This document shows positions 6,962 through 28,164 of a stretch of DNA of 33,271 bases, in pieces. This DNA comes from Chiloscyllium plagiosum (Eukaryota). How positions within the stretch are numbered: position 1 is the stretch's first letter; each line of letters opens with the position of its first letter. The position numbers and the translations under genes were made by a program. The notes below the pieces were generated by a model. It saw only the letters and a list, made by a program, of their open reading frames with translations, ran no database searches and had not been told where the DNA came from. The DNA is taken from positions 44,532,005 to 44,565,275 of the forward strand of contig NC_057718.1 of the NCBI RefSeq assembly GCF_004010195.1. Direction: 5' to 3'.

Positions 6962-7080
6962 AAATGAAGCCTGAGGAAGGGCAACACCCGAAATGTCGAC
7001 TTCACCACAGCTGCTTGCTGTGTTCTCCCAGCCTCCTGCTCATCTACCTTGGATTCCAGCATCTGCAATTTTTTTTTAAT
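6962..7080 (+). mobile_element. Short PLE-derived element carrying a hammerhead motif
   Basis: Same layout as the other inserts: core, gctgtgttctcccagc, then the ccagcatctgca terminus. No TSD found. Confidence 0.7.
6965..7004 (+). ncRNA. Minimal type-I hammerhead ribozyme motif
   Basis: tgaagc-CTGAGGA(6971-6977)-a-GGG caaca CCC-GAAA-tg-TC(6997)-gacttca. Stem I is tgaag(c)/g(a)cttca with one bulge. Confidence 0.7.
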
Positions 7081-8145
7081 CTTTAACCAGTTTTAACCAC
7101 TTTGCTGATAACAAAATATAGTTTGGGCATACACATGGAAGTGAAGTACAGATTAAAAGATCATAACCAATATGTAAAAAAAACTGTACATTTTTTGACC
7201 ATAATGAAAACAAAACTATATTCGACGTAAAATTATTCAATTTTCGGGGTCAGAAAAATTATGTATATTAAATCATGAACTTAATATGTTATTGAAAGCT
7301 CAGCTACATCTCATTAAATAGAGTATAAGTTTTCCAAGGATATTTGCTGTGTGACTAATTGCATAAAAATGGAAGTTCACATCATTTAAGTGAACTCAGA
7401 GATTTTTATTTGCTCCCTGTGGAGGACCAGGAAATCACTGACTAAAATAAAATTAAAATAGTAATATGTGCTATCTAAAGCAATGTTATCAGAAAAACTA
7501 TACAAAAATCTATTGATTTTAATGTATTGCTAAGGGTTATGTATACAAGAAGTCGTGAAGTTCTGTGTTTATACAAATTGAAAAGTCAGGGACTAGAGGG
7601 GAGTACAATATTGAAAGTTAGATGTGTCAAAAAGGGAATTGGAGCAGGATTAGAAACTGGTAAACAGAGATTGGTGAAGATGTTAGGCAGAATATGGAAA
7701 CAGTAAATTGAAAAATAGGAGAGAAATTCAAAGAAAATGAGAAATGGGTTTTGTAAAATAATATAATTAATTTATGCTACCTAAGTGGCAATTTAACTGC
7801 TTGTTATTTGTGATTAGAGAAATCTTGTCAATTCATTTATTTTTGCCAATTTTCTTTTGCTACCTTGTACTTTTGTGCATCTGAATGGAAATCCCTGTAG
7901 CTGCCCAAATTAATCTATGCCCATTAAAATCACTACATCTGGGAATTTCTTCCGTAAAAAATGCATATACTTTAGAAACTTTATAAATTAATGTGTATCT
8001 GGTTCTTCTGAACTTAACCATTTATTATCTTGTTGAACTTGTCAAATAATAAATGCCAAAAGTGCTACATCATTACATAGAAAATTAAAATAGAAATTTT
8101 ATTCAGTAGAAAAGTTTAAACTGAAAGGGGGCATCACCCAGTATG

Positions 8146-8515
8146 AGGAGGTGCTAGACTGGTGCTGATGTCACTGGACTAATATTTCAGGCACCCAGAG
8201 CAATGTTCTGAGTACGTGGGTTAAAATCCCACCCTCAGCACTTGGTGACATTTGAATTCAATAAAATCTGGAGTAAAGAACACATCTAACAATGATCATG
8301 GAACCAAAGATGATTGTCATTCAAAAAAATCTAATTTATTAATGTCCTTTAGGGAAGGACATCTGCAGCCTGGCCTATATGTGACTCCAGACCCACAGCA
8401 ATGTTGTTGATTCTTGACTGCCTCTGAAATGGCCTGGAGGGCTAAGGTATTCAGGGGGAACTAGAAATGCTGGCCTTACAGGTGATGCCCATATCCACTA
8501 GAAGAGCTTTTTAAA
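8146..8515 (+). mobile_element. tRNA-derived SINE (shark type) with LINE-derived tail
   Basis: Decayed tRNA head with B-box-like gggttaaaatccc near 8218. Tail aaatgctggccttacaggtgatgcccatatcc is homologous to the LINE 3' end at 14760-14830(-) and 31745-31790(+). Confidence 0.75.
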
Positions 8516-9124
8516 ATACAGTTCACTCCACACCTGTACATTCCATGAAGTTCCTTGGTATGTTTTGTTCATTGTGAATATACCTTGAAATTGTTAATTG
8601 TTGTCAATATTCATATCTTGCAGTGCTTGATACTTTTTCTGGTTAGTATAATAAAGAAATATCAATCCTCCAAACATTGACATCCTCAATATTGATTAAA
8701 AAAATGTATATTTAAAAGAATAATAATGCAATAATAAAATGAATTAGGATTCAATTCCTTTCAACAATTGAGATGGAAGATATGTGAGATTCCATTTTAT
8801 TACATTTTCCAGTCACCACATGTACTCCTGATAAACATCTTTGATTTAGATTCCAATATATATTGAACTTTCTTTCTTAATTCCATGACCTTAATTATAA
8901 AATAATAATCATTAATAACCCTGTCTCCTCTACAGCTTTTGCTGACGTTGTTGGCCTTTTCAAAAACAGACGCTTAATAGTGTTGAATCACCAGATAGGG
9001 AAATTAAAATACTGCTCTCTATTTTATTGTCATTAAGTGAACTAGAGACAAAGGATAGATTCATTTAGGATTTTTGACACTGAAATAAATTCGAAGCAAA
9101 ATTAACCATTTATAAATACTTTTA

Positions 9125-9222
9125 CTCAACATGTTATGACATATCTTGGGAGCAGGCTGAACTTGAAGCAAGGCCTTCTGGTTCAGAGATAGAGTCATTA
9201 TCACTGCACAACATGAGGCCTC
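9125..9222 (-). mobile_element. Short decayed tRNA-SINE head
   Basis: Minus strand ggaggcctcatgttgtgcagtgataatgactctatctctgaaccagaaggccttgcttcaagttcagcc has A-box/B-box-like spacing. Confidence 0.55.
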
Positions 9223-9860
9223 CAAGCAACCATTTCTAAATTGATTGTTACAGCCTACTGGGCGAATAGTGTGCCATTACTGATTAACTGTATACCTATT
9301 TATTTGACTTTCGGACCAAGGTTGTGAGAAATCACAGACAGGTTTCTACACTAAACAAGAATAATTATTAATTAAAGTAATTCGACTCTGGCTACAAGTA
9401 TAAACCATTGGCAAAGAAGATTACTAACTAAAACGCCAATCCTGTATAAGTTCCCCTTTACACACATGCAGACAAAATAGGGAAAATAGATAATTGGTGG
9501 AGGTAGGAAAAACTGGAAAGCCTTTGTTTCCTGATTCTGGTGTTGATCTTCTTCAGCAACCAGATCTTTACTGCTCAGATATCTTTCTTTGGTCTGTGAC
9601 AAATACAGAAAAAGTGATCCACTTGGAAAATGTCTCTGATTTATCAACTCAAAGGTCTCAGCTCATAGCAACTTCTGCAGGAAAGATAACTGGATCTCAT
9701 CGAGTTCAAGCTGACTTTTTTACTACAGAGAACAGGCAACTTCTCTGCAAGGAACAACAGAATATCCTTCAGAGTTTTTCCTAGCATATGTGTCTGTGCC
9801 TCTTTAATTTGTTTCCAGTTCCAATCTGCTCAGCTAACTGAGCACCAATCAACTTCACTC

Positions 9861-11495
9861 GGGGGACTTGGGAAAATAAATAGTGATATCTTGAAAAGTG
9901 TCCATATTACAATAGAGGAAGTGCTGAATGTCTTAAAACACATATAGGTAGATAAATCCCTGGGAACTGATCAGGTGTATTCCAGAACTTTCTGGGAAGC
10001 TATGGAAGTGATTATTGGGCCCTGTGCTGAGATATTTGTATCATCAACAGCCACAGATGAGGTGCTGGAGGGTTGAAGGTGGGCTAATGTGGTGCCATTA
10101 TTTTAAAAAGGTGGTAAAGAAAAGGCAGGGAACTACAGACTAATGAATCTGATGTCAATGGTGGGTAAGTTGATGGAGTGGATTCTGACAGATAGGATTT
10201 ACAGGCATTTGGAAAGGCAGGGACTGGTTAGAGATAGTCTTCATGGCTTTGAGCATAGGAAATAATGTCTTACTAACTTGATTGAATTTTTTGAATAGGT
10301 GACAAAGATGATTGATGAAGGCAGAGAGGTAGACGTTGCCTACATGGATTTCAGCAAGATGTTTGACAAGGTTCCACAGGGTAGAATAGTTAACAAAGTT
10401 AGATTACATGGAATCTAGGGAGACCTAGCCAGTTGGATACAAAGTTGGCTTGAAGGTAGGAGGTAGAGGATGGTGGTGGAGGGTTGCTTTTCAGACTGGA
10501 GGCCTGTGACCAGCGGTGTGCAACAAGGATTGGTGCAGGGTCCACTGCTTTTTGTCAATTAAATAAATGATTTAGATGTGAATATAGGAGGTATAGTTAG
10601 TAAGTTTGTAGATTACACCAAAATTGAAGGTGTAATGGACAGTGAAGAAAGTTAATTCAGAGTACACTGGGACCTTCATCAGATAGACCAATGGGCCAAG
10701 GAATGACAGATGGAGTTTACATTAGATAAATGTGAGGTGATGTATTTTGGTAAGGCAAATCAGGGCAGGACTTACACAATTAAATCCTGGGGAATGTTGC
10801 TGAATAAAGCAACTGAGCAGTGCACTTGCGTAGTTCCGTGAAAGTGGAGTCTCAGGTAGACCAGATGGTGAAAAAGGCATTTGACACGATTGTTTTGAAT
10901 GGTCAATGCACCTCAGGAGTTGGGACATCATGTTGTGGCTGCACAGGACACTTTTAGAATACTGCATACAACTCTGGTCACCCTTCCATAGGAAAGATGT
11001 TGTTAAACTTGAGATGTTCCAGAAAAGATGTACAAGGATGTTACTGGCACTGAAGGGTTTGAATTAATAGGGAGATGCTGAATAGGCTGGGGCTTTTTAC
11101 ACTGGAGCACCGGAGGCTGAGTTGTGACCTCATAGTGGTTTATAAAATCATGGGGGACATGGAAAGGATGAATAGTGAAGGTCTTTTTCCTAAGATAAGG
11201 GAGTCCAAAACTAGAGGGTATAGGTTTAAGGGGAGAAGGGAAAGATTTAAAAAGCACCTGAGGGGTAACGTTTTAATATAGAGGATGGTGCGTGTATGGA
11301 GCAAGCTGCCAGAGGAAGTAGTGGAGGTGGCTACAAGTACAATTTAAAAGTCATCTGGATGGGTATACGAATAAGAAGTGTTTAAAGGGATATGGGCCAA
11401 ATGTTAGGAAATGTGATTAGGTCAGACTAGTATGTCTGGTTGGTGCAGATGAGTGGGCTGAAAGAATCTGTTTCCGTGCTATATGATTCTGACTC
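9861..11495 (+). mobile_element. CR1 (HER1-like) LINE, 5'-truncated, RT to 3' end, pseudogenised
   Basis: DKS.G.DQVY, ANVVPLF.KG, LTNLIEFFE, VAYMDFSKMFDKVP and LNRLGLFTLEHRRL motifs. Tail ctgtttccgtgctatatgattct resembles the HE1 tail. Confidence 0.93.
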
Positions 11496-11539
11496 AACGA
11501 CAGAAAAACTTGACTATAAAGGTAGATCATGACAACAAT

Positions 11540-11670
11540 CCTAAAAGAGTAAAGGAAGGTTAAGAGGGGGGAGGAGTTTGGGTGAAAATTCCAGACTATA
11601 GCATCTGGACAGTTGAATGCAAAGACACCAGTACTGGAGTGAAGAGGATCAGAGTTTGAAGAATATACGC
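11540..11670 (-). mobile_element. Possible old L2-type LINE fragment
   Basis: aaattccagactatagcatctggacagttgaatgc resembles the antisense of the L2 ORF2 C-terminus (AF..L.P.LWNSL). Very decayed. Confidence 0.35.
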
Positions 11671-11927
11671 AATTTGTCTGGTCTGGTTGGGTCTGAGACT
11701 TGTCAGAATATGATGTTGGGGTGCAGGAATGCTCGATTCATCTCCAGCTTCAAACAAAGTATTGTGGTGAATGGAGTCTGCAATTGTGAATGATTTAGGT
11801 GAGAGTTTTGTTTTCTCTTTTCCTCCTTCCCATTAAATTATCTGTCAGTATAAGGCTAAAGCTACATTAAGTGCTTGCATCAATTACACAACACAAATTG
11901 TATGAAGTCACCTCAGTGAATTATTAG

Positions 11928-12045
11928 CTGAAAATGTGTTGCTGGAAAAGCGCAGCAGGTCAGGCAGCATCCAAGGAGCAGGAGAATCGACGTTTCGGGC
12001 ATGAGCCCTTCTTCAGGACTCCAGCATCTGCAGTCCTCACTTTCC
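11928..12045. mobile_element. Young PLE-derived insert with 5' inversion and 17-bp TSD
   Basis: Perfect TSD cctcagtgaattattag at 11911-11927 and 12046-12062. 11928-12018 is antisense and 12019-12045 (ctccagcatctgcagtcctcactttc) is the sense terminus. Confidence 0.88.
11983..12022 (-). ncRNA. Minimal type-I hammerhead ribozyme motif with intact core
   Basis: Minus strand: ggagtc-CTGAAGA(12016-12010)-a-GGGC tcat GCCC-GAAA-cg-TC(11989)-gattct. Palindromic ACGT stem III, predicted GUC cleavage site. Confidence 0.82.
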
Positions 12046-12389
12046 CCTCAGTGAATTATTAGTTCATTTTACCCAACGTTTAGTAATGATGACCTCCAGA
12101 CCCTGTTGAAAGAAAAAGCAAAAGTTTTATAAAGGCCATCTATGGTTGGCAGAGACCTCAGAGATGTGGCAAGCCACATAGAGAGAAGCATATGGGGTGT
12201 CAACATATAGTTGACATTCTAATACCTCAATAATTAAGTCATCTTAATGTACGGTTGTTTGGAGAGTCATAACTTGGAATCTTTCAAGATATGTCACCAT
12301 TTCTGATAATATGAATTGCTTACATCTCAGAACATAGCAATCTTTCCAGATTTTCTTTGGAGATCATCTGTTGTCTTCTGCCAATTTGA

Positions 12390-12456
12390 ACTTCAAAAAT
12401 ACTTCATTGATTGTAAACCACTTTAGGAGGAGATCATGATGTAATTGCAAGACTTT
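12390..12456 (+). mobile_element. 3' tail remnant of SacSINE1/L2-type element
   Basis: cttcaaaaatacttcattgattgtaaaccactttagg...tgcaagacttt, homologous to 27880-27980. Confidence 0.5.
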
Positions 12457-13371
12457 ATGTTGGAGGCCTACAGGCTGGTGGCAATGGTAGGGGACGGCAA
12501 TGAGTAGGAAAACTAGTCAGGTTCCTGTAAGCCTTTCTTAAAGGGAAAGGTGATATTGTCAGGCTGGGAGGGTGGTGTGGAGCCAATGGCCTCATGGAGA
12601 CAGAGAGGGAGAGAGAGACGAAGGATTCCTTAACTAAGATCTCGAACTGCAGCCGTTCTACAATATAACTCTGTTCTCCCAAGACTCTATTAATGTCTAT
12701 AAATACTTACGCAAGTAGAACAATGAATTCCTGCTTCATTGTCTTTTGAGGCTCTGAAATGGGATTTGCATAAGCAAGCCAATGAGGACCTTGTTTTGGT
12801 ATCCCTGGAACTGATGAAGATGTTTGACCATATCCTCCTCCTAGAACATGCGTTCAAATTGACCAGGACAGGCAGCTAAGGGACTGCCTATCTGAAGCAG
12901 TGAGAAATGGGAATATCTATCTGAAGTTGAGGACACATAATCAAGATGACACTCAATTGAGCTTTGACCCACAGACCTGGATCATGAGGACTGACTGTAT
13001 TCCTAAGTTGGGGTAGGTTAAGAGAGGTCACCGTAAGTATAGACGGGGATGCAGACCTCAGACTGAAGAGGAAAGCAGAATAGATTGCTGCTGCATGGTT
13101 TCGGTTAATATACTTCTATCTTCACAGTAAACCTCATGGCTGACCTCACTCAAAGAATGCTGAAAAAGAGGTATTGGAATTATAACAGACTAGGAACTTC
13201 AAATGAGACTGCTCTCAATGTGCTACCATGGCACAGAGACTTCATACAGTGCCTTCCCTTCTAAATGATATGAAACTAGTTGGGTCTTCCACCAGGACCC
13301 AAGTTGGGGTTGGGCTTGAGATAGGATGGGATGGGAGTGGTGCTCTTCCAGGAAGAGGCTCAATCTAAGGT

Positions 13372-13685
13372 GGGCGGCACGGTGGCACAGTGGTTAGCAC
13401 TGCTGCCTCACAGCGCCAGAGACCCGGGTTCAATTCCCGACTCAGGCGACTGAATGTGTGGAGTTTGCACATTCTCCCCGTGTCTGCGTGGGTTTCCTCC
13501 GGGTGCTCCGGTTTCCTTCCACAATCCAAAGATGTGCAGATCAGGTGAATTGGCCATGCTAAATTGCCCGTAGTGTTAGGTAAGGCGTAAATGTAGGGGT
13601 ATGGGTGGGTTGCGCTTCGGCGGGTCGGTGTGGACTTGTTGGGCCGAAGGGCCTGTTTCCACACTGTAATGTAATGTAATGTAAT
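13372..13685 (+). mobile_element. HE1-type V-SINE, full length, young
   Basis: A box tggcacagtgg 13383-13393, B box ggttcaattcc 13427-13437. V-domain tgtggagtttgcacattctccccgtgtctgcgtgggtttcctccggg, CR1-like tail gggccgaagggcctgtttccacactgta, (TGTAA)4 end. Confidence 0.95.
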
Positions 13686-13749
13686 TGCTTGACAGTGAGT
13701 AGGAATTTTAGCAAGGTAGATGGACAATGCTGACAATAAGAAAGGCATT

Positions 13750-14750
13750 AATCATTACTCTGGCTTTTGCCATCCGGCTAAGGGGCATGAGTTAATCTCT
13801 TTCCTCATCCAGGTCTCCATTTTGCAGGCATTGGTCATTTCTGCATCATGTTCTCCCTTTCTGTCTTCAACACACTTTTCATAACACTGAGATAACTGGC
13901 TGTTTGTGTTCTGCTGGATTCCCCAATGCAAGTAAGGAAGTTGTGTTTGGGTCAAACGTGTTACAAGATATCTTTGGAAGGTATTCAGTGTAACTGCTAT
14001 GAGCAGGACGTCATAAAGTTCCGAGATGAGACTAACTTGTTGCTTGTTCCACACGTTCAAGATGTACCAGCCAAATCTTGCAATGGTTTGAGGAGCAGAA
14101 AACTGGGTCATTCTTTTCCTCATTGACGTCATTATTGTTCTTGAAAGTAACAGCATGACATGTCACATGTCATGGACTTACCCTTTAGTGTAACTCTAAA
14201 AGCTACCTTAAGCAATGTTAGGCAGCAAAAGTGCTTATTTCCAAGTGAGAATGCACATAGATATTCTTTAACCTGTCACGGACATAGATAGTGTGCTGAC
14301 TATGGAGGGCGGCTCTTAATTCTTATCAAAGGTGAGGTGGAGGTCACCTTGTTTCTACACTTGCAAAGTATTGGACAACTTTGAGTGAGGATAATGACAC
14401 ATCAGACATTGTTACCTGATGACCCACAGGATTGTGACTCAAGATTACTATTCAGTAAGGAATTCTTAACATTGCAAACCACCCTTTCACTGATGCGACA
14501 TCCGGGATTACCTGTTCAAGTCCTTGTTGTGAAGTGTCATGTGAGAGCTATCAAATTTGTACATGTTCACAACAGTTCACATGAGGAAGATAGATAGAAA
14601 TCTAAGGAGCTGTACGAAATACCAGGGTTTTGACACACAGACTCATAAGGATGCTTAACTTCAAGCTAAGACTGATGAAGATTACAATTTTCAAAGATGC
14701 AGTGTATTTCTGCAGTCTTGCTTTGATCTGAGAAAGACATTGAAAACACA
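13750..14750 (-). mobile_element. Possible highly decayed Harbinger/PIF transposase relic
   Basis: Collinear weak resemblances on the minus strand: FDSSHMTL (cf. IDCTHV), SGN..IILTQS (cf. PGS.HD.FIL.QS), VEQA (cf. IE.AIG), HNF (cf. LHN). Many frameshifts. Confidence 0.25.
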
Positions 14751-14756
14751 CAATCT

Positions 14757-15856
14757 GCATTTTGTTTAATCACTCGTGGGACATGTGCATCGCTGGCTCA
14801 CCAGCATTTATTGCTTGTCCCTAGTTGCCCTTGAGAAGGTGGTAGTGAGCTGCCTTTTTGAACTGCTACAGTTGACCCACAAAGCTCTCAGGGAGGGAAT
14901 TTCAAAGTTTAATCCAGTGACAATAAAGGAACGATGATATATTTCCTAGTCAGGATGGTGAGCGGTTTGGAAGAGAGCTTGCAGGTACTGCCCTTGTCCT
15001 TCTAGATCGAAGAGGTTGTGGGTTTTAAAGATTCTTTCTAAGGATCTTTGGTGAATTTCTGCAGTGCATCTTGTAGATGGTACACACTGCTGTTACTGAG
15101 ATCAGTGGTGGAGGGAGTGGATGTAGTGCCAATCAAGCAGGCTGCTTTGCCCTGGGTGATGTCAAGCTTCTTGAGTTGTTGGAGCTGAACCATCCAGGCA
15201 AGTGGGCAGTATTCAATCACACTCCTGACTTGTACTTTGTAATGTTGGACAGACTTTGGGGTTTTAGGAGGTGCGATGCTTGCCGCAACTTCCTTAGCCT
15301 CAGTGTTTGTGCGGTTGTCCAGTGGAGATTTTCTGGGCAGTGGGAACCCTTCCTGAAGATGTTGGTAGTGGGTGATTCAGTGATGGTAACACCATTGAAT
15401 GCCAAGGTGTGGTGCTTAGATTGTCTCTTCTTGGAGATAGCCATAACTTGGCATTTGGCTATTGCCGCTTGTCAGCTCATGCCTGGATATTGTGCAGATT
15501 TTGTTGCATTTGCAAATGCAGTGCTTCATTATTTGAGGAGTTGCAAATGGTGCCAAACATTGTGCAAACATTAGCCAACATCCCCACTTCTGACCTTATG
15601 GTGGAAGAAAGGTCATTGATTAGGCAGCTGAAGATGGTTGGGCCTAGGACACTATCCTGAGATGCAGAGATGTCCTGGAGCTGAGACGATTGATCTCCAA
15701 TAACCACAATCATCTTCCGATATGTCAGGTATAACTCTAACCATAGAGAGTTTGCCATCTGATACCAATGGATTCCAGTTTTGCTAGGACTCCTTAATGT
15801 CACATTTGTTCAAATGCCTTGATGTCAATGGCTGTCACTCTCACCTCACCTCTGAG
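14757..15856 (-). mobile_element. Second-lineage CR1/L2-group LINE, RT to 3' end
   Basis: WLELYLTYRKMIVVIGDQSS..QDSVLGPTIFSCLINDL (15477-15803), then EYCPLAW..LKKLDITQGKAACLIG. 3' UTR ends aataaatgctgg..cacatgtcccacgagtgatt. Confidence 0.88.
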
Positions 15857-17044
15857 AGAAATCATGAGTTGTGTTCTAGCTAGTTATTGTAGGAAGTTTC
15901 TGCAAGGTTATGCTGGGTTTTCTGTCCTACTCCACCACTTGAAAGAAAACCAAAGTATTCTAAAGGAGTACAGTAGATGGGAAAGAAGATACATTGTGTA
16001 ATACTTCATGAAACATCACAGGGTGTTGGACCCCAGCATGCAAAGATTCCTGTAGCATCCTCCATCTGAAGCTCATGTCACTAACTATGCTTGGCCACCC
16101 AGATTTCAGTCTCTCTTTCATGACTGGAAATCAATATTAGTTTCTTTAGTGTATGAGCTAATCACAGGTTCAAAGGCAGAAGAGAGCGGTTATGGCTTGA
16201 GCCAGCTGGAGTACCCAGCTGAGCGTGATCAGAATGCAGAATTACTCCAGCATGAAGTTAGAACTTAGCTTTGAGATCAGCTATTTCTTCAAAGACCAAA
16301 AGCAGTGTTTTAATCAGTACAGAGTTTGAAATGTTTACAGTAAACAAATCACTCTGTTATTTCAAATATCTGGCAAGCTTGGAGCAATGGAGACCAAACG
16401 ATCTGCTGAACTTGCTCAGTTTTGATTCCAGATTCGAAGACTCACCATAGGAGGGAACTCATCTCGGCCTGGTTGCAGATGAAGCTATGCCCAGCCCATA
16501 AATCAAGGCAGCATTCAGATCCTGATTGCTTTTGACATTTGCACTCAGATCCAGTTGGCAGTCACCGATTCACTTATAAATGAGATCCAGACCATGTCAG
16601 GGAGATAAAGCCAGGTATGATTTCACGTTGTCATCTGACTCGAACAAGGAGTTCAGACTGCTTCACCTGGTTAATGTAGACATTTATAAGCTGCTGCCAT
16701 GGAAGATCCAATGTCCATCAAATTAATGTCAGCTAATGAGGGAGTCCAAACAAGCAAGAAGCCATTGAGGTGCTGCAAGAGGATCAGGGAGGAGGATGGA
16801 GTCTTCCATCAGCTGTTTCATGGCACTGAGAGAGAGGTGAAGTAACTCATCCTTACAAAGCCTCAAACATCATGTTGACACTAGTTCATGATGACTGAGC
16901 AAAACACTGTGATTCTATGCTGGATGGCTGCTGATAATGATAACCATGGTTGAATGTGTCAAAGGTGTATTTTGGATAATGCAGGAGGGGATTTCACCCA
17001 ACAATGTGATTTCTGGTTGCTAAGAGGTCCTTTTAATGGATGTC

Positions 17045-17370
17045 ATGGTTCTTTATCCCAGCAGTAATGGGACTGGGCACATTCTCACACTTACAGGTCT
17101 TGTTGTAGCTCCTCCTTTCCCAACATTACCAATCAGATAATAATCTGTCTCCACGTTTTTGCTACCAAAGGGGAGAACCTCACATTTATCCACATCATAC
17201 TTTATTTGCAGTGCATTTGCCCATTCACTCAACTTATCCAAATCACACTGAAACATCTCTGCATCCTCCTCAAAGTTCATTCTCCCACCCTGCTTCATAT
17301 TGTCTGCAGACTTGAAGATATTACATTTAATTCTCTCATCTAAATCTTTAACGTGTATTGTGAGTTGGAG
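17045..17370 (-). mobile_element. CR1 RT internal fragment
   Basis: ADNMKQGG..EEDAEMFQCDLDKLSEWA..YDVDKCEVLPFGSKN. Confidence 0.85.
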
Positions 17371-17519
17371 GTGTAGGAGTTGAGGCAGCTGTCAGGTGAT
17401 GAACACACACCATTTAGAAGAGGTAATGATGATCATAGGTGACCTGAACATTGATGGAATAGAATGTTTTTCTATTAGTGAACTCTGCTGCAATGTTATA
17501 TGATCCCACAATCAATAAT

Positions 17520-17851
17520 GATTAGATTAAATTATCTACAGTGAGGAAACAGGCTACTTGGCCCATCAAGTCCACAAGGACCCTCTGGAGAGTAAACCAC
17601 CCAATCCCATTCCCCTACCCCATATTTACCCCTGACTAATACACCTAATAATATGGGCAATTTAACATGGCTAATTCACTTAACCGACACATCTTTTGGA
17701 TTGTGGGAGGAAACTGGAACACTTGGAGGAAACCCACGCAGACATGGGAGAATGTGCAACTCCACACAGACAGTTGCCCGAGGTGGGATTCGAACTCAGG
17801 TCTCTGGCACTGTGAGGTAGCAGTGCTAACCAATGAGCCACCGTGCTGTTC
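17520..17851 (-). mobile_element. HE1-type V-SINE, full length, older subfamily
   Basis: Reverse complement of the 13372 element with more substitutions and a longer central-3' segment. Confidence 0.92.
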
Positions 17852-18694
17852 CAAATGTCCTGCATTTGGCAGAAGCCAACCATGTTGCGGAATTTTACTG
17901 CATGGGCTACATGAAGTCATGTTCAGGAAACAAAATGAACTGGTGTGGTCATTGTCTTAATCCTTTTGTGGGTGCACAACTGAGACATCTCACACAGGTC
18001 AGCCATCACTCTCTGAAAGGAGCTAGTCACATAGACGTTCGATGTAGCTGTCATCTTCACAGCCACTGAGAAAGTCACTTATTCAAATCCAACTGCAATC
18101 CACTACTCTCCCCTGTCTTTATGGGCACTTTCTCCCAAGGTGGACATATGAAAATTTGGCAATTTGACAAATTTTCTCTACGCATCTTGATGATGAAAAG
18201 TGAATGTTCACAGGATGTAACATTGGAAGTGATTAAATCAAATAGATCTCAGTGAAATAATACATAAACAACAGAACTTTCAAGAATTTTAGGTTACATA
18301 GTGTAGGATTTTGTTCATTCCCAAATTGACCTTCCTACTTCAATTCTTTTCTTTCAATGTTTTTCCTTTGTTCCCCATTGGTTTTAAAACAGTAATCCAT
18401 GCCCTTAATACCTCAAGGCTTTGTCTAAACAGTATCTCTGTTTCTATCTTACACTAAATTCCTTCATTTGGAATACTCCTTTTGTTGCTATCCTGTTAGA
18501 GTCTTATACCAGCCCCCAGATGTTTGTTAGGAGGACTTTGCAGGGTCGACAGGATAGTGGGTGATCAGTACATTATTTACAGATATGCTCAAACTTTTAG
18601 TTTCTTGTTTTCTCGATATCTGGAACTCTCTTCAAGATTCTTTCACATTTCACCTTCCCTGTTTGCTTTCAATAGTACTTACTGTCAACTTCAA

Positions 18695-19280
18695 CGGAGG
18701 ATGAGAGGATTGCCTTACAATGTTGGGTCAAGTAAATTGATTCTCTTTTATCTGGAGCTTAAAAGACTTCGAGGTGATTTCATAGAAACACTTAAGATTA
18801 TGAAAGGGAATGACAGGAGTTGTTTCCTTTGAGCTGGGGAATCTAGAGACTGGGGAATCAGTTTCAAGATAAGGAGCCAGTCATTTGGAATTGAGATGAA
18901 AAGAAATTTCTTCATTCAAAAGGTTATGAATCTTTGGAAATTCACTACCCAGAAGGTTTTTGATGTATCATCATCAAGTATATTTAAAGCTGAGACTGAC
19001 AGATCTTTGGGTGTCTCACAGAATCAGGGGAATTGGGGAACAAGTAGGAAAATGGAGTTGAATCCGTCAATCAGACATAATCATACTGAGAGGTGGGGCA
19101 CAGAACAGAGTATGGTTTACTTCTGCCTCTATTTCCAGCTACCTGATAAAGGAGCAGTGCTTTGAAAGGTTGTACCTCAAACAAACCTGTTGGATTATAA
19201 GGTGGTGTTGTGTGATTTTTAACTTGTCCACTCCAGTCCAACACCGGCACCTCCTCATCTATTTCTTATGTTCGTATGCT
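18695..19280 (+). mobile_element. CR1 3' end, tail interrupted by the insert at 19136-19257
   Basis: LELKRLRGDFIETLKIMKGNDR and MKRNFFIQKVMNLW..IFKAETDRSL. Tail ctatttc|ttatgttcgtatg. Confidence 0.88.
19136..19257 (+). mobile_element. Short PLE-derived insert (second family) with degenerate hammerhead
   Basis: 8-bp TSD tctatttc (19128-19135, 19258-19265). tac-CTGATAA(19143-19149)-a-GGAGC agt GCTTT-GAAA-ggtt-gta. Confidence 0.7.
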
Positions 19281-19299
19281 ATCTTCATCTGTTCTTTTC

Positions 19300-19570
19300 A
19301 CATAAGAATATAGAAAACAGGAACAAGAGTGGGTCATTTGACCTTTGAGGCTGCTCCACCATTCAGAATGATCATGGCTGATCATCCAACTCAGCGCTCT
19401 GTTTCTGCTTTCTCTCCGTGCCTTCTGATTTCTTTAGCCCTAAGAACTGTATGCAACTCAACCTTGAAAATATTCAATGTTTCAGCCTCAACCACTTTCT
19501 CTGGCCAAGAATTCCACAGGCACATCAGTCTATGAGTTAAGAAATTTCCCTTCATCTCAGCTCTTACACC
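19300..19570 (-). mobile_element. CR1 3' end
   Basis: cataagaatatagaaaacagg..gatcatggctgat..aagaattccacagg..aagaaatttccc is the antisense of the CR1 C-terminus and 3' UTR. Confidence 0.85.
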
Positions 19571-21139
19571 ATATCCTTATGACACATGATTGCAATGCTA
19601 CACCAACATCTTCAGACTCCACCAACATCTTCTAGTGTCCTTCAATGTCTCCACCTTGCCTTTATCCCCATCTGAAGGAATGAAATTCCTCTTTGATGTC
19701 TGACCTACACTACCTCCCCCTTTGACCCCAACTGCAAACACTATATCATTCTGCAGGTCTTTGATGTTCATCTTCCCTATTCTATTGTATTTCTGATCTT
19801 TCTAGATTTTGCCATTTCAATGCTCCCTTTAGCCTTGAACTAATTATATTCCATTCTCCAATTCCTCTTCACCAAACAACTACCTGAATCTAATGCCAGT
19901 TGTAACTTAATTTTCTGCATTTTCCACATTGTTTTTTTTAATCTGCACATCAACATAAGTGAAAGCTTTGTGTGCAAGGGTTTTTAAGATGAGTACGAAT
20001 TATCAAATTAGTTTTAAGATGTCATCAAAAGTATGTTCATATAAACCACACATTTGACAAAAAGTTGAGCAAATAAAATAATTATTCATTAGAATCAATT
20101 TGATTGATTTACTTATTACAGGATCGTGTTTAAATTTCAGTCAACTGAAGTTCAGAATCGTTTCCAAGAAAATATTAATGACATTCTGCATCTGCTCACT
20201 GTTAAAATGGATTTTTGCCATTGAGAAATTGATGCATGTACTTTATTTACTCTTGTGTCATTAGTCACCTGCAGTTTGCTTAGAATCAAAAAAATCACAA
20301 AATGGTTTTGCAGGATGAATAACTTTTGGTTCATTTGATCATAGTCATTGCAGCATTACTGTTTACAAAATAAATCTTGGCTTTAACTTTATCCTAAATG
20401 AAGTAAAACTTCCTGCAGTCTATCTTAGTTTTTCCTTTCATGCTTCTAAACCAGAGACCCTGACATATCTGATAATACATCAACAAAATACACTTATAAT
20501 GTTCCATGATTAGAAACAAATTCTAGAATTGTTCCCAGATTCCCAAATACAATAGGCAATGAACATAAAGAAAACAAGGTACAATGGAGTTTAAGGATTG
20601 AGCTCAGGACTAAGTTCCAGAACCATGCGGCACAACTCCATCATAGTACTTCCAAATGTCAGGGATATAGTAGGGAACCATCTTCCTAGAATAACTTCCA
20701 GTGGCGTTGCCTCTCATTTCCTCCTTCACTATATCTGCACTGTGCAGTGTTCATCAAATGGTCACCATGGCATGTACAAAATTGACTTCCCATCTAGGCC
20801 ATCCATGTTCATTTGATGCAGAATAAACATCAGAATGAAAAATGTGTGAAACTTGTAAATGACATGTTGGTCCAACTCATCATATATAGCTCAAAATGGA
20901 GCTCCAGCATGACTCATGTGTTCTTCTCCTGGTATTGCTGGTCTATTTATTGTTTGTTTTTACCCTCTGAGACATGAGATGCTTCATCCTCTGAAACATC
21001 CAACTGTTGTCTTCAGAGGAGGTGTAAGGTAGAACACCTGTAGCCTGCTTCTGACGTTCTGGAGAATTAACATTTCAAATGAAGCACAAAAACATTGAGT
21101 TGACTAGTTATTTAAAGAGTCATTACTATCAATGGATGC

Positions 21140-21453
21140 CCCAATTCCAATCTTCCAGCTCAGCACTGTCCTCATGACCTGTCCTACCTGACAATCTCCC
21201 TTCCCATTTATCCACTTCACCCTCCCCTCTGACCTATCACCTCCATCCCCACCCCTATTCACCTATTGTACTCTTTGCTACCTTCTCCCCAGCCCCACCC
21301 CTCCCATTTATCTCTCCACCCTGGAGGCTCCCTGTTTCTATCCCTGATGAAGGGTTTTTGCCCGAAACATCGATTTTCCTGCTCCTCAGATGCTGCCTGA
21401 GCACTACTCTAATCTAAACTTTGGTTTCCAGCATCTGCAGTCCTCACTTTTGC
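21140..21453 (+). mobile_element. PLE 3' region/pseudo-LTR insert, 314 bp, 14-bp TSD
   Basis: Perfect TSD ctatcaatggatgc (21126-21139, 21454-21467). C-rich 200-nt leader, hammerhead core, terminus ccagcatctgcagtcctcactttt. Confidence 0.85.
21340..21378 (+). ncRNA. Minimal hammerhead ribozyme motif
   Basis: CTGATGA(21344-21350)-a-GGGT tttt GCCC-GAAA-ca-TC(21371). Canonical core, weak stem I. Confidence 0.72.
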
Positions 21454-21897
21454 CTATCAATGGATGCAGCAGGCTGCTATGGGAGCCAGAGTTGATGGAT
21501 AAGTACAAATCCTCCTCACTTTCCACATCCACCCACCAAACCAGATAATTCAATTTCAACTCCTCCTCTTCAAAACAAAAAGTAACATGCAGGCATTGTC
21601 TTTGGGCTCCAAGAATGTATTTCATCTGAATGTTTTGCTGGTGAATTAGTCACCGGTCTGTGAAGGACAATTAGGAGTATTTCTTCAGTTAGTGATAGGG
21701 ATGAAGTGCTGAAGAGTTAATGGGGTGATAAATGGGTTGTGGGAGTTGTGGAGCAGGGTTTGCCATAGCAAATTCCAAGGTCAGTTTTCACCCTTGGTAC
21801 CACTATTGAAACAGTTTTTCTATAAAGGATAGGAGAACATAGTCAATAGCATCCTGCAAGTTTGTTATGATAATGCATGAGATTTCGGTCTTCTCTT

Positions 21898-22668
21898 TCA
21901 GATTCATTGAATTGGACAATTCAGAAGAGGACCTTCTGCCCATCCAGTCTGTACCAACAAAAACTATTGTAAATCTACATTGGTCTAACACTCCAGCATT
22001 GGAAGTAATGACATTTCAAGTGTTCATCCAAGTACTTTTTGAAAGAGTTGTGAGGTTTGCCACCTTACCTACCCTCCTGGGTAGTATATTCCAGATTTTT
22101 ACCACCCTCATTTGCTTGTTTTGTTTTCCTCAAATCACCTCTAAACCTTCTGCCTTTCACCTTAAAATTGTGCCCAATAATGTGACCCGCTCCTTCCTAT
22201 CCACTGTACCCTTGCTCCCCATAATCTTATACACCTCAATCAGGTCTCAATCTTAGCTTTCTCTGCTCTTAAAAGAAACAACCTAAGCTTATCCAACCTT
22301 TCTCAATTGTGAAAATGCTCTAACTCAGGCAGCACCCTGCTGAATCTCCTCTGCACCCCCTCCATTCTTCCTAGAGTGTAATGACCAAAAGTCCACACAA
22401 TATTCCAATTGTGATTTAAACAAGGCTTTCTTTGTTTTTTATATTTCAATCTTCAACATAATCTCCCTGTTCTTACAGTCTGTGTCATGATTAATAAAAG
22501 CAAGTGTCCTGTATTCCCTCTTAAGCACTCTATGTATCTTACATACTATATTCAATAATTTGTGGACAAGAACCCCAAGATGCCTCTGTTCCCCTGAGCT
22601 TCCTAATATACTATTATTTGTTGAGTATTTGGAGTTGAAAAGCGTTCCTTCCAATGTGTACTCACCTT
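21898..22668 (-). mobile_element. Decayed CR1, RT C-terminus to 3' end
   Basis: ILGSSGEQRHLGVLVHKLL..HRVLKREYRTLAFIN (22439-22654). 3' UTR antisense at about 21900-22030. Confidence 0.85.
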
Positions 22669-22899
22669 GGAGTCCAGATCAGTGGGCTGTGTTGGAAATG
22701 GCTGGTCAGAAGAAATAGAAAAGGAAGGGTTCCAGCCCAGCTCCTTGATTGATGCAAGTTCTGACAGCAAAAGGCAGGGATGCCAGTTTCTTGTAGAGAT
22801 CAGAAGCGATCACTTCATTCTGAAGAAATCTTATAACATCAGTATATTTTACAGACTACATATGAAGCCCAGAGTTTTCTTGAGAGGGTTTCTGTTTGA

Positions 22900-23770
22900 C
22901 TGAGTTGAAGGCCTTTATAAAATTGATGAAGACTATTTAGACAGCTTGGTTTTGCTTGCACCATTTCTCTTGTTATCATGGCATACACAGACTACCTTTG
23001 ACCTGTTTAAAGAAACCTGTTGAGCCAAAGGGCTGCATTTGAATGCAGATGAGACATGTGATCCATGAGCCAAAACTAAAACTTGCACCAAACCTCCTCA
23101 GCATCATTGTTGCAGTTTGTGCTCTGGAGCCAGTCAATCATTTCAGTAATCTCAGTTGCCACTGTTGCAGTCAGTAACCATAGACGTGGAGATCCTACAC
23201 AGAATCCAGTGCAGGATCTCTTCCTTTGGGAAGATACTTAGATGACTCGTCAATGGTTGCATTCTATAAGGCAGTCAGCCTCCCACGGTTTCTTTTCTGC
23301 TGTGAAACCTGGGTGACACATTGCCTAATCCTGCAAAACATTTGAATGTACTGTTAGCACTACTTCAGAAATATCTTACTAATCATCTGAATGGACTGCT
23401 GCACAAACACAGACATATTCCAAGAAGCAGGTGCTCTGAGCATAGAGGAAACCGTTGTTACATAGACTTATGCTAAACAGCCTCTGCACCAGAATGCTGA
23501 ACACTTACTTTCCAAAATGCATCCTCTGTTCCCAACTCATTCCTGGTCAAAAATCACACAATGTCAGTGGACATATTTCAAAGATCCCCAGAAAGGATAC
23601 TTGAAAAAGATTGGCTTCAATTTTAATGGATGGGAAGACAGCACTTTGGACTGCCCATGATAGTGATTACTGTTTCATAGCTTGCTTTTTCTTCATCAAG
23701 GTGTAGCTGGTTTTGAAAGACATATGGTGATGGCTGAAGCTGTGAAAGCAAAAAGAAAGCTCCAGCTTAG
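22900..23770 (+). mobile_element. Old RTE-clade (BovB-like) LINE fragment, RT C-terminal half
   Basis: Manual translation across frameshifts: DLFKETC*AKGLHLNADET, LEPVNHFSNLS, IDVEILHRIQC, YKAVSLPRFLFCCETWVT (23265-23318), PKCILCSQLIPGQKSH, QWTYFKDPQKGYLKKIGFNFNGWEDSTLD. The motifs are collinear with RTE RT. Confidence 0.8.
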
Positions 23771-24526
23771 GTGCAACACTTCACCAATCACAGACTGCCC
23801 AACAGACTAATCAATCACTGACTGCTGTGGGTTTTTTTGATTTTTATTTAAAGGGACCTCAGCCTTTTATTTTCCTTTTTCACCTCCTTTGCCAGACATT
23901 GATTTCATGCTATCTCTTACAGTCTCTCTTGCTTTTCTCATTTCCCTTTTCCTTTTGTCTGTATTGCCCTCTCCTTTCTATGGGACTCCCTGGCAAGCAT
24001 TCTCCACATTCCACAAGGCTATCAAGTTACTTAGGTGAGAACTACAATATTCAGATCAAAATCATCACTAAAGCCACATCAGAGAAGCCAGAGAATTTCA
24101 AGATATAACTAATCACATGTATGTGTGAGCTGAAATACCAGATGGACAAAAGCCACGAAGGCACTGAGAGGTCCTTTTCTCTTTCCATTATTTCTTCCTT
24201 TGCATTTAAGCATACTACCGTTTGCCTCAGCATGCCTTAGTAAGGAAGCCGAAATTGAAACAGAGTTCCTGTCTATGATAGCTTGCCAGACCATTCTTTG
24301 TGGAAGGACTTGTGTAGGTGTAGGTCGGATTAAGTCAATTGTGTTCTGGCAACATTCACTGTCAAAGTTTTCATGCAAAATGGTCACTTGAGTACTTGCA
24401 GCTTGTGCAAAATGTCAGCAAAACATGATTAATAGCATGACAAGAGGTAAGGAGCCTAAAACCAACAAAGAAATAAACATATAAAATGTTTCTAATTTGA
24501 ATGTTCTTTCTCAAAATAGTTTGGGG

Positions 24527-25870
24527 TAAGATAATTAGAAATAGGAAGGAAACAAGTAGATCATATGGCCCTTCAAGCCAGCTTTGCCATTCAATATGCA
24601 GTTGGAGTTCAATCCAGGCAAATGTGAGGTGATGCATTTTGGGACGTCTAATTCTAGAGTGAATTATGCAGTAAACGGAAGAGCCTTGGGAAAAGTTGAT
24701 GAGCAGAGAGATCTGGGAGTTCAGGTCCACTGTACCCTGAAGGTTGTTGCACAGGTGGATAGAGTGGTCAAGAAGGCATATGGTATGCTTGCCTTCATCG
24801 GACGGAGTATTGAGTATAAAAGCTGGCAAGTCATATTAAAATTGTACACAACATTCGTTCAATCGTATTTACAATACTGTGTATGATTCTGGTCGCCACA
24901 TTACTAAAAGGATGTGGACACTTTGGAGAGGGTGCAGAGAAGATTTACAAAGATGTTGCTTGGTATGGAAGGTGCTAGCTATGAAGAGAAGTTGAGTAGA
25001 TTAGGTTTGTTTTCATTAGAAAAAAGGAGATTGAGGAGGGACCTGATTGAGGTCTACAAAATCATGAAGGGTATAGACAGGATAGATAGAGATAAGCTTT
25101 TCCCAGGGTGAAGGATTCAATAATGAGAGGCCACATTTTCAAGGTGAGAGGTGAGATGTTTAAGGGGGATACACGTGGCAAGTACATTACACAGAGGGTG
25201 GTAGGTGCCTGTAGCGCGTTGCCAGCAGAGGTAGTAGAGACAGACACAGTAGATTCATTTAAGATGCGTCTGGACAGATGCATGAGTAGGTGGGGAGCAG
25301 AGGAATACAGATGCTTAGGAAATGGGTGACAGATTTAGACAGTGGATTTGGATCGGTTCAGGCTTGGAGGGCCGAAGGGCCTGTTCCTGTGCTATAGATT
25401 TTCTTTGTTCTTTGTTCGTTTAATAGGACCATGGCTGATCTGACATTCTTCAGGTCCACTTTCCCACCTTTTCCCTGTAATCCTTTGTTTCCCCATTGAT
25501 CAAGAATCTATCTCAGCCTTAAATATACACAATGACTGTTCCTCCACAGCTGTCTGTGGCAAGATCACACAAAATCTCACAACTCTCAGAGAGAGGAAAT
25601 ACACCGTCATTTCCCTCTTAAAGTGACACCCCTTTATTCTGAAACCATACTGTCTGGTTGTAGACTGTCTCATGAGGGGAAAATTCCTCTCCATATTTAC
25701 CATGTCAAACCCCTTGAGAATCCTCTATGTTTCTATGAGATCATTTCACATTCTTCTAAATTACAATGAGTAGGGTCTCAACCTGTTTAGCTTTTGGCAC
25801 AAGACAATCCTTCCATTCTAGAAATCATCTTAATGAACCTTCTCTGAACGGTGTCCACTGAAATGATCCA
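24527..25870 (-). mobile_element. Older CR1 3' end, split by the insert at 24597-25417
   Basis: Antisense 3' UTR ..gccattcaata|ggaccatggctgatc.. is continuous across the insert. ORF 25500-25703 FPLMRQSTTR..LRVVRF..IFKAEID. Confidence 0.85.
24597..25417 (+). mobile_element. Younger CR1 3' fragment
   Basis: [53 protein letters not shown]. Tail ttctttgttctttgttc. Degenerate TSD cattcaata/cgtttaata. Confidence 0.93.
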
Positions 25871-26479
25871 TTTCTTTAAATACTTTAAGTAACAGTTTTC
25901 CTTTACATACTATTTTATCCTTTATTTAGAATTCCTTGACAACAAAGTTTTTTAAAAATGACACTTACTGGTTTAGATGATCTAAGACATTATGAATGGC
26001 AGCAAAAGGTGAGTACCACAGTTATATTTGACTCTGTGCAATATGCCTAGTAAAATACTATATTTTCTACGTGGTATTCTTTTATACTAGAAAAGATAAT
26101 ACTGACATAGAAATGGGAAAAAGTATACTAAGTTCAGTAAGGAAATGTGAGTCCCACAACATTTAATAAAGTATCTTGAATCATATTGTATTGAAACCAG
26201 CCTAGTGCCTTGATGAAAGAGGCTGCATAAATGAAAAGAGGACTTTTTAAAAAGTTGCAATCGGATAATAATTCCACTGACACATCTATGGTAGGAAGTA
26301 AGCCATGTGTCATGACTGATAATGGGTACACTGGTGATGAAGACTATAAAATAAACATTGGAACGTTTCAATTCACTATTAAACCCTGCTCAGTTATTTC
26401 CATGCTTTATTACATTTTCCTTGTAAATGCACACAGCTAAAATTCTGATATCTCCCATTAATCATAATATTATGAGATG

Positions 26480-27845
26480 TAGCGCAATGGGCCAATTCTC
26501 TGCCTTTAAAATATTCAAATATGCTGCCTTTTGAGGAAGAGAATTTCAAAGACCCACAACCCACTCAGGGAAAAAAAAGAATTCTCCCAATCTCTGATTT
26601 AAATGGTTTACCATAATTTTTAAACAATGACACCCTAGTTCTACATTCTTCCATCAGTGAAACATCCTTTCTATATCGAATCATTGAAGTCCCCACAGGA
26701 TCTTGTATGCCTCAATTAAGTCACCTCTTGCTGTTCTAAACTAAAACAGACTCTAACCTAAATTGTCCTCAAAAGACAATCTGCCCATTTCAGGTATTGG
26801 TTCTTGTTGGCTATTCTCTGGACAATCTCCAGAGCAGTTACATCTTTCCTTAAGTAGATTGTAGACAGTCCTCTATATGTGGTATCCACACAGTGCCCTG
26901 TATAAATGAAGCAAAATCTCCTTCCCTCTGCATTTTAAAAGAAATGCTATTTGCTTTCCTAATTACTCATTGTACCTGAATACTAAACTTTTACAATTCA
27001 TGCACTTGGGCAACCAGTTTCTTCTGCATTTCAGACTTCTGTAATTACTCACCATTTATTTTTTAGTCTTCCCCCAAAAATGAACAATTCCACATTTTCC
27101 CACATTATAATTCATTTGTCAGATCTTTGTGTGCTTATCTAACCTAACTATATTCTTTTCTAGCTGTTTTTGTATTCTCTTCACAACTTACTTCCAACTT
27201 ATGTCCGATCAACAACTTTTGCAATAATATCTTCAGTCTCTTCATCCAAATTACTTACATAATTTGTAAAGTATCCATGCCTACACATTGATCCCAGTGG
27301 TACAACACTAGCTACGTCTTACCAATCAGAAAATGGTCACTGTTTCCTGCTAGCCAAACAATTTCCCATCCATGCCAATATGTCCTTCCTACAGCTTTTA
27401 TTTTCTGTAATAACCTTTGATGTTTTACCTTATGAAACATCTTTGGAAATCTCGGTAGAGTACATTTACTAGTCTCACTTAATCCTCGGAGTGTCTTAGC
27501 ACCTCAAAAAAATCCAGTAGATCGGTCCAGCATGATTGCCTTTTCACAAAACCATGGCGAAAGTGCGGACTGCAGATGCTGGAGATCAGAGTTAAGATTT
27601 GAGTGGTGCTGGAAATGCACAGCAGGTCAGGCAGCATCTGAGGAGCAGGAAAATCGACATATTGGGCAGGAGCCCTTATCCATATTAATTGCCTAATTAC
27701 TTAATCTTATCCAAGTCTCCTGTTTAACTTCTTTAATAATAGCTTCTAGCATTTTCCCTTTGATAGGTGTTAAGCTAACTAACCTGTAGCTTTCTACATT
27801 ATGCCTCCTTCCTTTTATATGTGAAGGAGTTACAATTACAATCTT
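26480..27845 (-). mobile_element. Old CR1, RT to near 3' end, interrupted at 27556-27679
   Basis: Antisense remnants of RLVSLT (gttaagctaactaacctgta), HG.VK (aaaccat..catgattgcc), Y.DFQ.FHKV (ttatgaaacatctttggaaat), KCGIVHFWG (aaatgaacaattccacattt). Confidence 0.8.
27556..27679 (-). mobile_element. Short PLE-derived insert with degenerate hammerhead
   Basis: Collinear homologue of 11928-12045 and 21344-21453. Stem II GGGC tcct GCCC is intact, GAAA is mutated to AATA and the core is truncated at the boundary. ccat on both sides. Confidence 0.82.
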
Positions 27846-27879
27846 GGTATTGGTGGGAATGGTCATTTATTTGCTGTAT

Positions 27880-27980
27880 GCCCTATATTACAGGATAATG
27901 ATGCATTAGCAGCATTTGATTGGCTGGAAATCACTTTGGAAGTGGAGAGGTTGCAAGTGGCACTATATAAATGTAAGCCA
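27880..27980 (+). mobile_element. SacSINE1/L2-type 3' tail remnant
   Basis: cctatattacagg..attggctggaaatcactttgg..ggcactatataaatgtaag. Confidence 0.55.
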
Positions 27981-28060
27981 AAAGAAAACGCTGGCTGATT
28001 CCCTGCCTATTATGGTCCAAGCATGTTTTTATAGCTGATCGCTTGACTCAGTGTTACAAA

Positions 28061-28164
28061 GTGACCCAGTCCTAATGAAAGGTTCCTACATGAAACATCG
28101 ACTCCCCTTCTCTGATGTTGTTTGACTGACTATGCTTTTTCCAGCTCCACTCTTTATCCACACT
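28061..28164 (+). mobile_element. Short PLE-derived insert with degenerate hammerhead
   Basis: TSD gtgttacaaa (28051-28060, 28165-28174). agtc-CTAATGA(28072-28078)..GAAA-ca-TC-gact with stem I agtc/gact. Confidence 0.72.

Follow-up and report, generated by a model that had tools for sequence, protein, structure and literature searches.

Six short insertions built around a minimal hammerhead ribozyme lie dispersed through a 33,271-nucleotide stretch of the genome of the shark Chiloscyllium plagiosum (RefSeq assembly GCF_004010195.1, contig NC_057718.1, positions 44,532,005 to 44,565,275 of the forward strand), which we refer to at its full length as the window. A first-pass annotation of this DNA, made from the sequence alone, had described the six as ribozyme-bearing mini-retroelements of at least two families, four of them flanked by exact target-site duplications (TSDs) of 8 to 17 bp. 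All six were found where it had placed them, and the TSDs were confirmed for four of six (17, 8, 14, and 10 bp). Its view that several families are involved stands, but their number was too low: in BLAST searches with 24 natural units, which returned no matches on reversed control sequence, the inserts fall into families A (11928, 21140, and 27556), B (19136), C (6962), and D (28061), and a family E stub at 4885-4969 had been overlooked. As argued below, the inserts appear to derive from Penelope-like elements (PLEs). Positions relative to a unit are written as +n or -n, where the first C of the hammerhead core is 0.

4885..4969, no strand assigned: family E palindromic stub with two 35-nt arms, comprising the downstream part of the unit only, without the hammerhead core
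6970..7080 (3' end approximate), plus strand: family C stub, head unit and tail of a putatively Neptune-type PLE; core at 6971 intact, stem I decayed
11928..12045, minus strand: family A (A2) head-to-head insertion; 17-bp TSD at 11911-11927/12046-12062
19136..19257, plus strand: family B stub with tail, starting ~6 to 7 nt before the core; 8-bp TSD at 19128-19135/19258-19265
21140..21453, plus strand: family A (A1) 314-nt 5'-truncated copy; 14-bp TSD at 21126-21139/21454-21467
27556..27679, minus strand: family A stub truncated inside the core (starts at ~+6), with the long tail end
28061..28164, plus strand: family D stub with the short 3' end; 10-bp TSD at 28051-28060/28165-28174

The shared layout reported for the six inserts, with three degenerate copies, was recovered: core, extra base, stem II of at least 3 bp, GAAA, 2-nt loop, and UH are intact in three of six (6971, 12016 on the minus strand, and 21344) and degenerate at 19143, 28072, and 27556. 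The family B stub carries G8>A in its core at 19143; in the family D stub the core (28072) has G5>A and stem II is broken, with the natural 4-bp stem I retained; and the 27556 insert has lost the start of its core and carries a mutated GAAA. Stem I of at least 2 bp is retained in only one of the six copies, and the long stems I described at 6962 and 11928 did not hold up. The former is mostly flanking sequence, since family C homology begins only 1 nt before the core, and the 5' strand of the latter belongs to an inverted arm. That arm is 27 nt long (12019-12045) and ends at the long tail site, and its 91-nt partner, which contains the intact core, ends at the short 3' site. The 314-nt copy comprises 204 nt of PLE 3' untranslated region (UTR), including an AT-rich box at 21306-21311, followed by the core at 21344, a predicted cut after 21371, and the tail to 21453. 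No convincing TSD was found for the 6962/6970 insert (best, 4 bp) or the 27556 insert (4 bp, or 7 bp offset).

Family majorities for each of 10 families and subfamilies contain the core, one extra base, a 4- to 6-bp stem II, GAAA, UH, and a 3- to 4-bp stem I, and in each the 2-nt loop (CG or GC) makes the A15.1-U16.1 region palindromic. The two commonest subfamilies, A1 and A2, have a U-U mismatch at the third pair of stem I. Stem covariation between families, on which the earlier reading depended, was observed, both sides having changed at seven of eight counted pairs by simple counts over stems I and II. A strict hammerhead descriptor matched three times in the window and in none of 50 dinucleotide shuffles, and 22 times in 379,789 bases sampled elsewhere in the genome against none in each of five shuffles; an Rfam scan of the window up to an E value of 5 returned no match to a hammerhead family and, on the inserts, none to tRNA, 5S, or 7SL models. 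Monomer folding of the six window motifs gave a hammerhead-like fold of stems I and II in three (6962, 11928, and 28061), the last at only -1.8 kcal/mol. Alignment folding joins about +42..+50 to +100..+108 in a downstream stem in families A, C, and D, and family B builds the corresponding stem from unrelated sequence. The motif UCCAG occurs twice in A, C, and D units (at ~+70 and at +97..+101), each time ~18 to 25 nt before one of two 3' ends; the doubled motif is possibly a duplicated protein-binding site. Core columns seemed to be under selection within copies (1.3 to 3.3% divergence versus 6.3 to 8.7% elsewhere in A1, A2, B, and P2), but we do not accept this, since alignment through the core was the criterion for inclusion and, within families, core columns have decayed at close to the rate of the median other column, as is expected for dead copies.

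To place the window in its genomic context, we examined 10-kb segments placed at round coordinates, 90 in all from the 40 largest contigs and together 861,102 non-N bases, a sample that is not formally random. It holds 301 unit pieces, 213 of which cover the hammerhead, and these resolve into 68 head-to-head pairs and 165 solos, for 233 insertions or 271 per Mb; short units make up ~2.6% of the sampled DNA. The window has seven insertions in 33 kb (~210 per Mb), and its flanking 40 kb contain 4, 3, 0, and 3 pieces per 10 kb. On these densities the window is not a special ribozyme cluster. Strict motifs in the sample number 79 with any stem I, 61 with a stem I of at least 2 bp, and 8 with at least 4 bp, against none in the reversed control. 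Scaled to ~3.4 Gb (the assembly is 3.56 Gb), the counts extrapolate to ~0.9 million insertions and, depending on stem I stringency, 30,000 to 300,000 descriptor-passing motifs genome-wide; the very large number of ribozyme motifs foreseen for this genome is borne out by the 233 insertions, the 79 strict motifs, and this scaling. The sample also contains two further families, P1 and P2, which we take to be Poseidon-type from their endonuclease ends.

The first-pass annotation had likened the inserts to the minimal hammerheads of PLEs and proposed a check for an open reading frame (ORF) encoding reverse transcriptase (RT) and a GIY-YIG endonuclease (EN) upstream of the longest copies. Such ORFs were found, decayed, in families A, B, and D by Pfam and in families C and E by eye, so that ORF linkage and layout together bear out the likeness. 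Sequence matching the first 150 nt of the 314-nt copy directly follows a decayed RT/GIY-YIG ORF at locus L014, and of 30 family A loci retrieved with this ORF end, 17 have a core farther downstream that fits a strict pattern. Pfam identified GIY-YIG (PF01541, E value 9.9e-5) and, weakly, RVT_1 (E value 0.034) at family A locus L092; RT (PF00078, RVT_1, E value 4.6e-5), with a GIY-YIG-type motif, upstream of the unit in longer members of family B (L291, L296, and L302); and GIY-YIG (PF01541, E value 1.6e-5) upstream of the unit in family D (L174). The longer family C members L135 and L143 gave no Pfam match and show a GIY-YIG-type C-terminus upstream of the unit by eye, as do longer members of family E, also by eye only. 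Pfam missed most of the ORF pieces, with relevant matches in two of six family A pieces and in two of seven other pieces.

In family A, where pseudo-long terminal repeats (pseudo-LTRs) were examined, the hammerhead unit stands both before and after the ORF. Of 30 loci retrieved with the 5' portion of the ORF, seven extend back to the same hammerhead unit, two loci (L230 and L239) preserve a natural tandem junction of endonuclease end, 3' UTR, hammerhead, tail, and ORF start, and the long copies L212 and L227 begin at the hammerhead, as the stubs do. The long reading frame of family A starts ~160 nt after the core (~+160), making the unit a 5' UTR, and the earlier description of the unit as non-coding holds in this family. 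Of the three families in which this stretch was reached, A and D have a C-x4-C-x2-C linker between RT and EN (L092 in A; L174, L177, and L179 in D), and in B it is degenerate (L291). A CX2-5CxxC linker has been described for the Neptune clade (PMC8557442), and the elements here would accordingly be named Neptune-type PLEs, the clade name resting on this motif. Taken together, the sequence relationships indicate that the units are the pseudo-LTR head and tail of elements encoding RT and GIY-YIG. At L055:2140-2712, one strand carries two A2 hammerheads at a distance of 334 nt, the first followed by ORF-start sequence, an arrangement that makes them a candidate for dimer cleavage in cis. Family A stubs were also seen inserted in other PLE copies (L007:1200-1720 and L014:205-335), one of them splitting a Poseidon-type hammerhead.

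Copies end at one of two fixed 3' sites, ~85 to 92 and ~115 to 128 nt after the core, and the unit consists of the hammerhead, a conserved stem, and an optional 30- to 40-nt tail. The short 3' end falls within the loop of the downstream stem and the long 3' end beyond the stem. Among solos, 66 have the short end, 65 the long end, and 6 another; 28 family E pieces are unclassed because the queries stopped short of the E tail. The P1 and P2 families follow the tail rule too (e.g., L040, L055, and L067). Of the 68 head-to-head pairs, 15 were set aside, 8 because they involve family E and 7 because one arm stops at another position or is interrupted by a locus edge. The other 53 comprise 49 long-short, one long-long, and three short-short pairs, where 26.5 long-short pairs would be expected (p = 4e-11). 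All pairs but one (67 of 68) are of the same family, the two arms of a pair resemble each other (0.888) more than they resemble the rest of the family (0.842), and 38 of 63 analysable pairs lie under one TSD of 7 to 17 bp (controls, 2 to 4). Among solos, 39 of 137 have a TSD of at least 7 bp (controls, 9 to 18).

The 5' ends were mapped in 97 non-inverted Neptune-type copies that align from unit position 12 or earlier. Of these ends, 50 fall in -12..+8, 2 in -13..-36, and 3 beyond +8, with the mode at -4, while the other 42 copies run more than 36 nt into the 3' UTR or ORF. Base composition in 93 short copies whose flanks are not pyrimidine-rich is at background at -5 and family-like from -4; 16 of 109 copies were dropped as possibly long, and a few window copies are counted twice through overlapping loci. 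An origin of the 5' ends at the ribozyme cut site (+28) was rejected: six of 144 solo pieces start at +26..+33, a per-base rate equal to that of neighbouring bins. An AT-rich box occupies -33..-38 in long copies of families A, B, C, D, and E, and 80 of 108 long A, C, D, and E copies have an initiator-like match whose A lies at -4. Some P2 copies have 5' ends near -78.

We consider it probable, at roughly two chances in three (0.68), that the inserts are TSD-flanked terminal-unit remnants of at least four PLE families and that the 105- to 125-nt class are likely run-off cDNAs of an uncleaved RNA 5' head. Transcription would start at the first base of the ribozyme, directed by the TATA-like box (-33 to -38) and the initiator-like A at -4 (~-8 in family B). 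The element protein would then bind the RNA head, nick target DNA, and prime internally at one of two sites (+88 or +125), and copying to the RNA 5' end would leave a 90- to 130-nt stub. Longer copies would arise from read-through RNA of tandem or ORF-bearing copies, with ordinary 5' truncation, and head-to-head pairs from extension of both target strands, one from the short and the other from the long start site. The stubs, which lack the upstream box, would be dead on arrival; copies such as 21140-21453 keep the box and could feed more stubs, and trans mobilisation from promoter-bearing truncated copies like this one is possible. The ribozyme would be kept by selection in source elements, cutting only as a dimer or with protein help, and it did not define the copy ends. 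Several of these steps have been reported for an Anolis PLE in vitro (PMC11167929), in which priming at two internal sites defines the tail, both target strands are extended, a shortened RNA 5' end gives a shorter product, uncleaved RNA is the main substrate, and the hammerhead needs protein.

Several observations weigh against this reading. A pyrimidine-rich context and the constraint of stem I make initiator-like matches easier, the box in families A, C, and D is only TATA-like (TTTAT type), and family B has a canonical TATAAA but no strict initiator match near its 5' peak (0 of 24). The 5' pile-up is ~20 nt wide rather than a single base, and both the conservation and the stop at -4..-1 could be structural, since these positions are also the 5' strand of stem I. 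No excess of G marking cap copying was seen at -5 in the 93 short copies (0.19). In the two Poseidon-type families the boxes lie near -48 and -53 and stubs are scarce (1 of 4 and 1 of 12 within 30 nt), and no ORF was intact among 60 long family A loci, all those seen being broken. Poly(A) single-cell RNA reads (four runs, one of which gave 0 reads, from a library that is not a 5'-end library and under a related organism label) showed no start or end pile-up. The same reads cover both strands equally, 93% continue into unlike sequence, and none pile up at the cut site, a pattern that fits passive transcription; a loose-end read peak at -4 is confounded by upstream subfamily divergence, and we did not use it as support. 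Finally, start sites in the Anolis assay are reported to be the same on both strands (PMC11167929), and Penelope of Drosophila virilis is described as having a TATA-less internal promoter (PMC2377424).

An alternative is that the stubs are extreme 3'-end fragments produced by ordinary 5' truncation with a hot spot, RT initiating within the 3' pseudo-LTR of an RNA, either full-length or read-through, and dropping off just past the hammerhead fold or a bound protein, so that no promoter would be needed there. The coincidence of the 5' peak with the edge of stem I (-4), the spread of ends over ~20 nt, and the many inverted arms that likewise stop inside the unit are all in keeping with such drop-off, and strong 5' truncation is the reported norm for PLEs (PMC8557442). 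However, RT stalling at a stem should occur at its 3' foot and not after it, A1 and A2 share the -4 mode even though their stem I has only 2 bp and a U-U mismatch, and drop-off leaves unexplained the AT-rich box 30 nt upstream in five otherwise unlike families. We regard it as unlikely, though it is the main competitor to run-off copying.

The independent unit favoured by the first-pass annotation, a non-autonomous short interspersed element (SINE) or retrozyme of 105 to 125 nt that is self-transcribed, ribozyme-processed, and mobilised in trans by PLE proteins, fares worse; we think it highly improbable and, as a separate lineage, largely refuted. A narrow size class, TSDs, and a huge copy number would suit such a unit, retrozymes have been proposed to derive from PLE pseudo-LTRs (bioRxiv 10.64898/2026.07.22.740005), and trans action on pseudo-LTR-flanked DNA is known (PMC3846280). 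Yet short and long copies are intermixed. In a lineage test on family A (48 short and 71 long copies, 80 columns), 62 of 119 nearest neighbours had the same short or long label against a shuffled mean of 61.2 (p = 0.49), and three sets of identical units contain both classes. A tree of the same copies gave 32 label changes versus 37 when shuffled, with 22 to 27 of 500 shuffles as low, borderline clustering that leans towards a separate lineage and that we attribute to over-sampling of one ORF-bearing subfamily. Copy ends lie away from the cut site, stubs have no upstream box, core columns decay about like other columns, and no head-to-tail hammerhead arrays occur in the window; among the 213 hammerhead-covering pieces, 32 same-strand pairs lie within 1 kb, only 15 of the same family. 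That the inserts are ends of miniature inverted-repeat transposable elements (MITEs), the outcome named beforehand as refuting a PLE origin, or chance matches to a short motif is scarcely credible: although some insertions are palindromic (the 68 pairs), descriptor and BLAST searches of shuffled or reversed sequence returned nothing, TSD length is variable (7 to 17 bp), arms are unequal, and the linkage to RT/GIY-YIG ORFs refutes the idea.

The window contains other repeats. A 101-nt inverted repeat (97% identity, 8-nt spacer) at 3-212 lies inside a long interspersed element (LINE) fragment, and weak microRNA-family matches there reflect merely the hairpin. A 201-nt direct duplication at 355-773 is 97% alike with its copies 218 nt apart, and a degenerate 24-bp tandem repeat occupies 30001-30185. 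Segments at 5300-6900, 9900-11500, and 24596-25397 are, we presume, decayed CR1-type LINE 3' fragments, and the family B stub at 19136 sits within the 3' end of another. Copies of a tRNA-derived SINE, which we assume to resemble the shark HE1 type, lie at 13370-13669 (plus strand), 28498-28797 (minus), 17523-17846 (minus), and 8148-8237, the last with a weak Rfam tRNA match; two are 96% alike over 300 nt.

More generally, transcription of Neptune-type PLEs may begin with the first nucleotide of the hammerhead, 30 nt downstream of a TATA-like box, with reverse transcription primed 90 or 125 nt farther along; a monomeric transcript could then give nothing but a head-only stub, and a dimeric protein would use the two sites in a fixed manner, one per strand. 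We give this generalization even odds. If true, it would explain both the need of PLEs for tandems to move whole and the roughly one million ribozyme-headed stubs in this genome, and the role of the ribozyme would be that of a 5'-end (decapping-like) switch instead of a unit-length processor. Copy ends at hundreds of thousands of loci could matter as an in vivo record of PLE replication (where the RNA starts, the two priming sites with one for each strand, and the uncleaved template), and a defined 130-nt RNA would allow the role of the PLE hammerhead to be tested. Such short units are easily mistaken for SINEs or MITEs in repeat annotation.

Solo minimal hammerheads of truncated PLEs, tails, inverted arms, and internal priming are already published. 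A literature search, its scope ending short of Repbase/Dfam, subscription papers, and supplements, returned nothing on PLE hammerheads in sharks and no description of head-only stubs downstream of a TATA-like box. The closest motif is the minimal hammerhead (min-HHR) of metazoan PLEs, reported mostly as solo motifs of truncated PLEs, with dimers cleaving weakly in vitro (Cervera and De la Pena 2014, PMC4209133); dimer cleavage is also covered in a review (PMC6765202). Our units share with the min-HHR, as described there, the type-I core, the extra base between positions 9 and 10.1, G10.1-C11.1 (A-U in family D), the palindromic 2-nt loop III region, the short stem I, the pseudo-LTR location, and the occurrence of several families per genome as dispersed single copies (PMC4209133). 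They differ in number, ~4,000 in coelacanth and ~9,000 in Xenopus versus an extrapolated 30,000 to 300,000 here, a comparison across different descriptors, and the accessible part of that account includes neither cartilaginous fish nor mapped end positions (PMC4209133). EN-containing (EN+) PLEs are reported to have the same pseudo-LTR, partial tandem, tail on one inverted arm, 8- to 10-bp TSDs, and strong 5' truncation (Arkhipova 2013, PMC3846280; Craig 2021, PMC8557442), and the Neptune CX2-5CxxC linker recurs in families A and D (PMC8557442). In those accounts, as far as they are accessible, the tail on one arm is a qualitative observation (PMC3846280, PMC8557442), whereas here it was counted, as 49 of 53 long-short pairs, and about half of our copies form a head-only class whose 5' mode lies at the ribozyme edge.

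Mechanistically, the Poseidon element PAc of Anolis is most similar, with two internal RT start sites ~90 to 125 nt after the hammerhead that define the tail, extension of both strands, and uncleaved RNA as substrate (Frangieh 2024, PMC11167929). However, it belongs to another clade and its ORF starts in stem II, whereas the elements here appear to be Neptune-type and have a non-coding head (family A), and neither a genomic stub class nor strand-ordered use of the two sites is derived in the accessible part of that report (PMC11167929). Non-LTR retrozymes, reported from one chondrichthyan, likewise have a type-I hammerhead, are non-coding, show kinship to PLE pseudo-LTRs, and occur as dispersed monomers (Cervera and De la Pena 2020, PMC7229834; Li et al., bioRxiv 10.64898/2026.07.22.740005). 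Theirs are described as tandem 150- to 450-bp repeats with canonical hammerheads that yield circular RNAs running from cut site to cut site (PMC7229834; bioRxiv 10.64898/2026.07.22.740005), whereas the units described here occur singly or head to head, are of the minimal type, and begin ~30 nt before the cut site.

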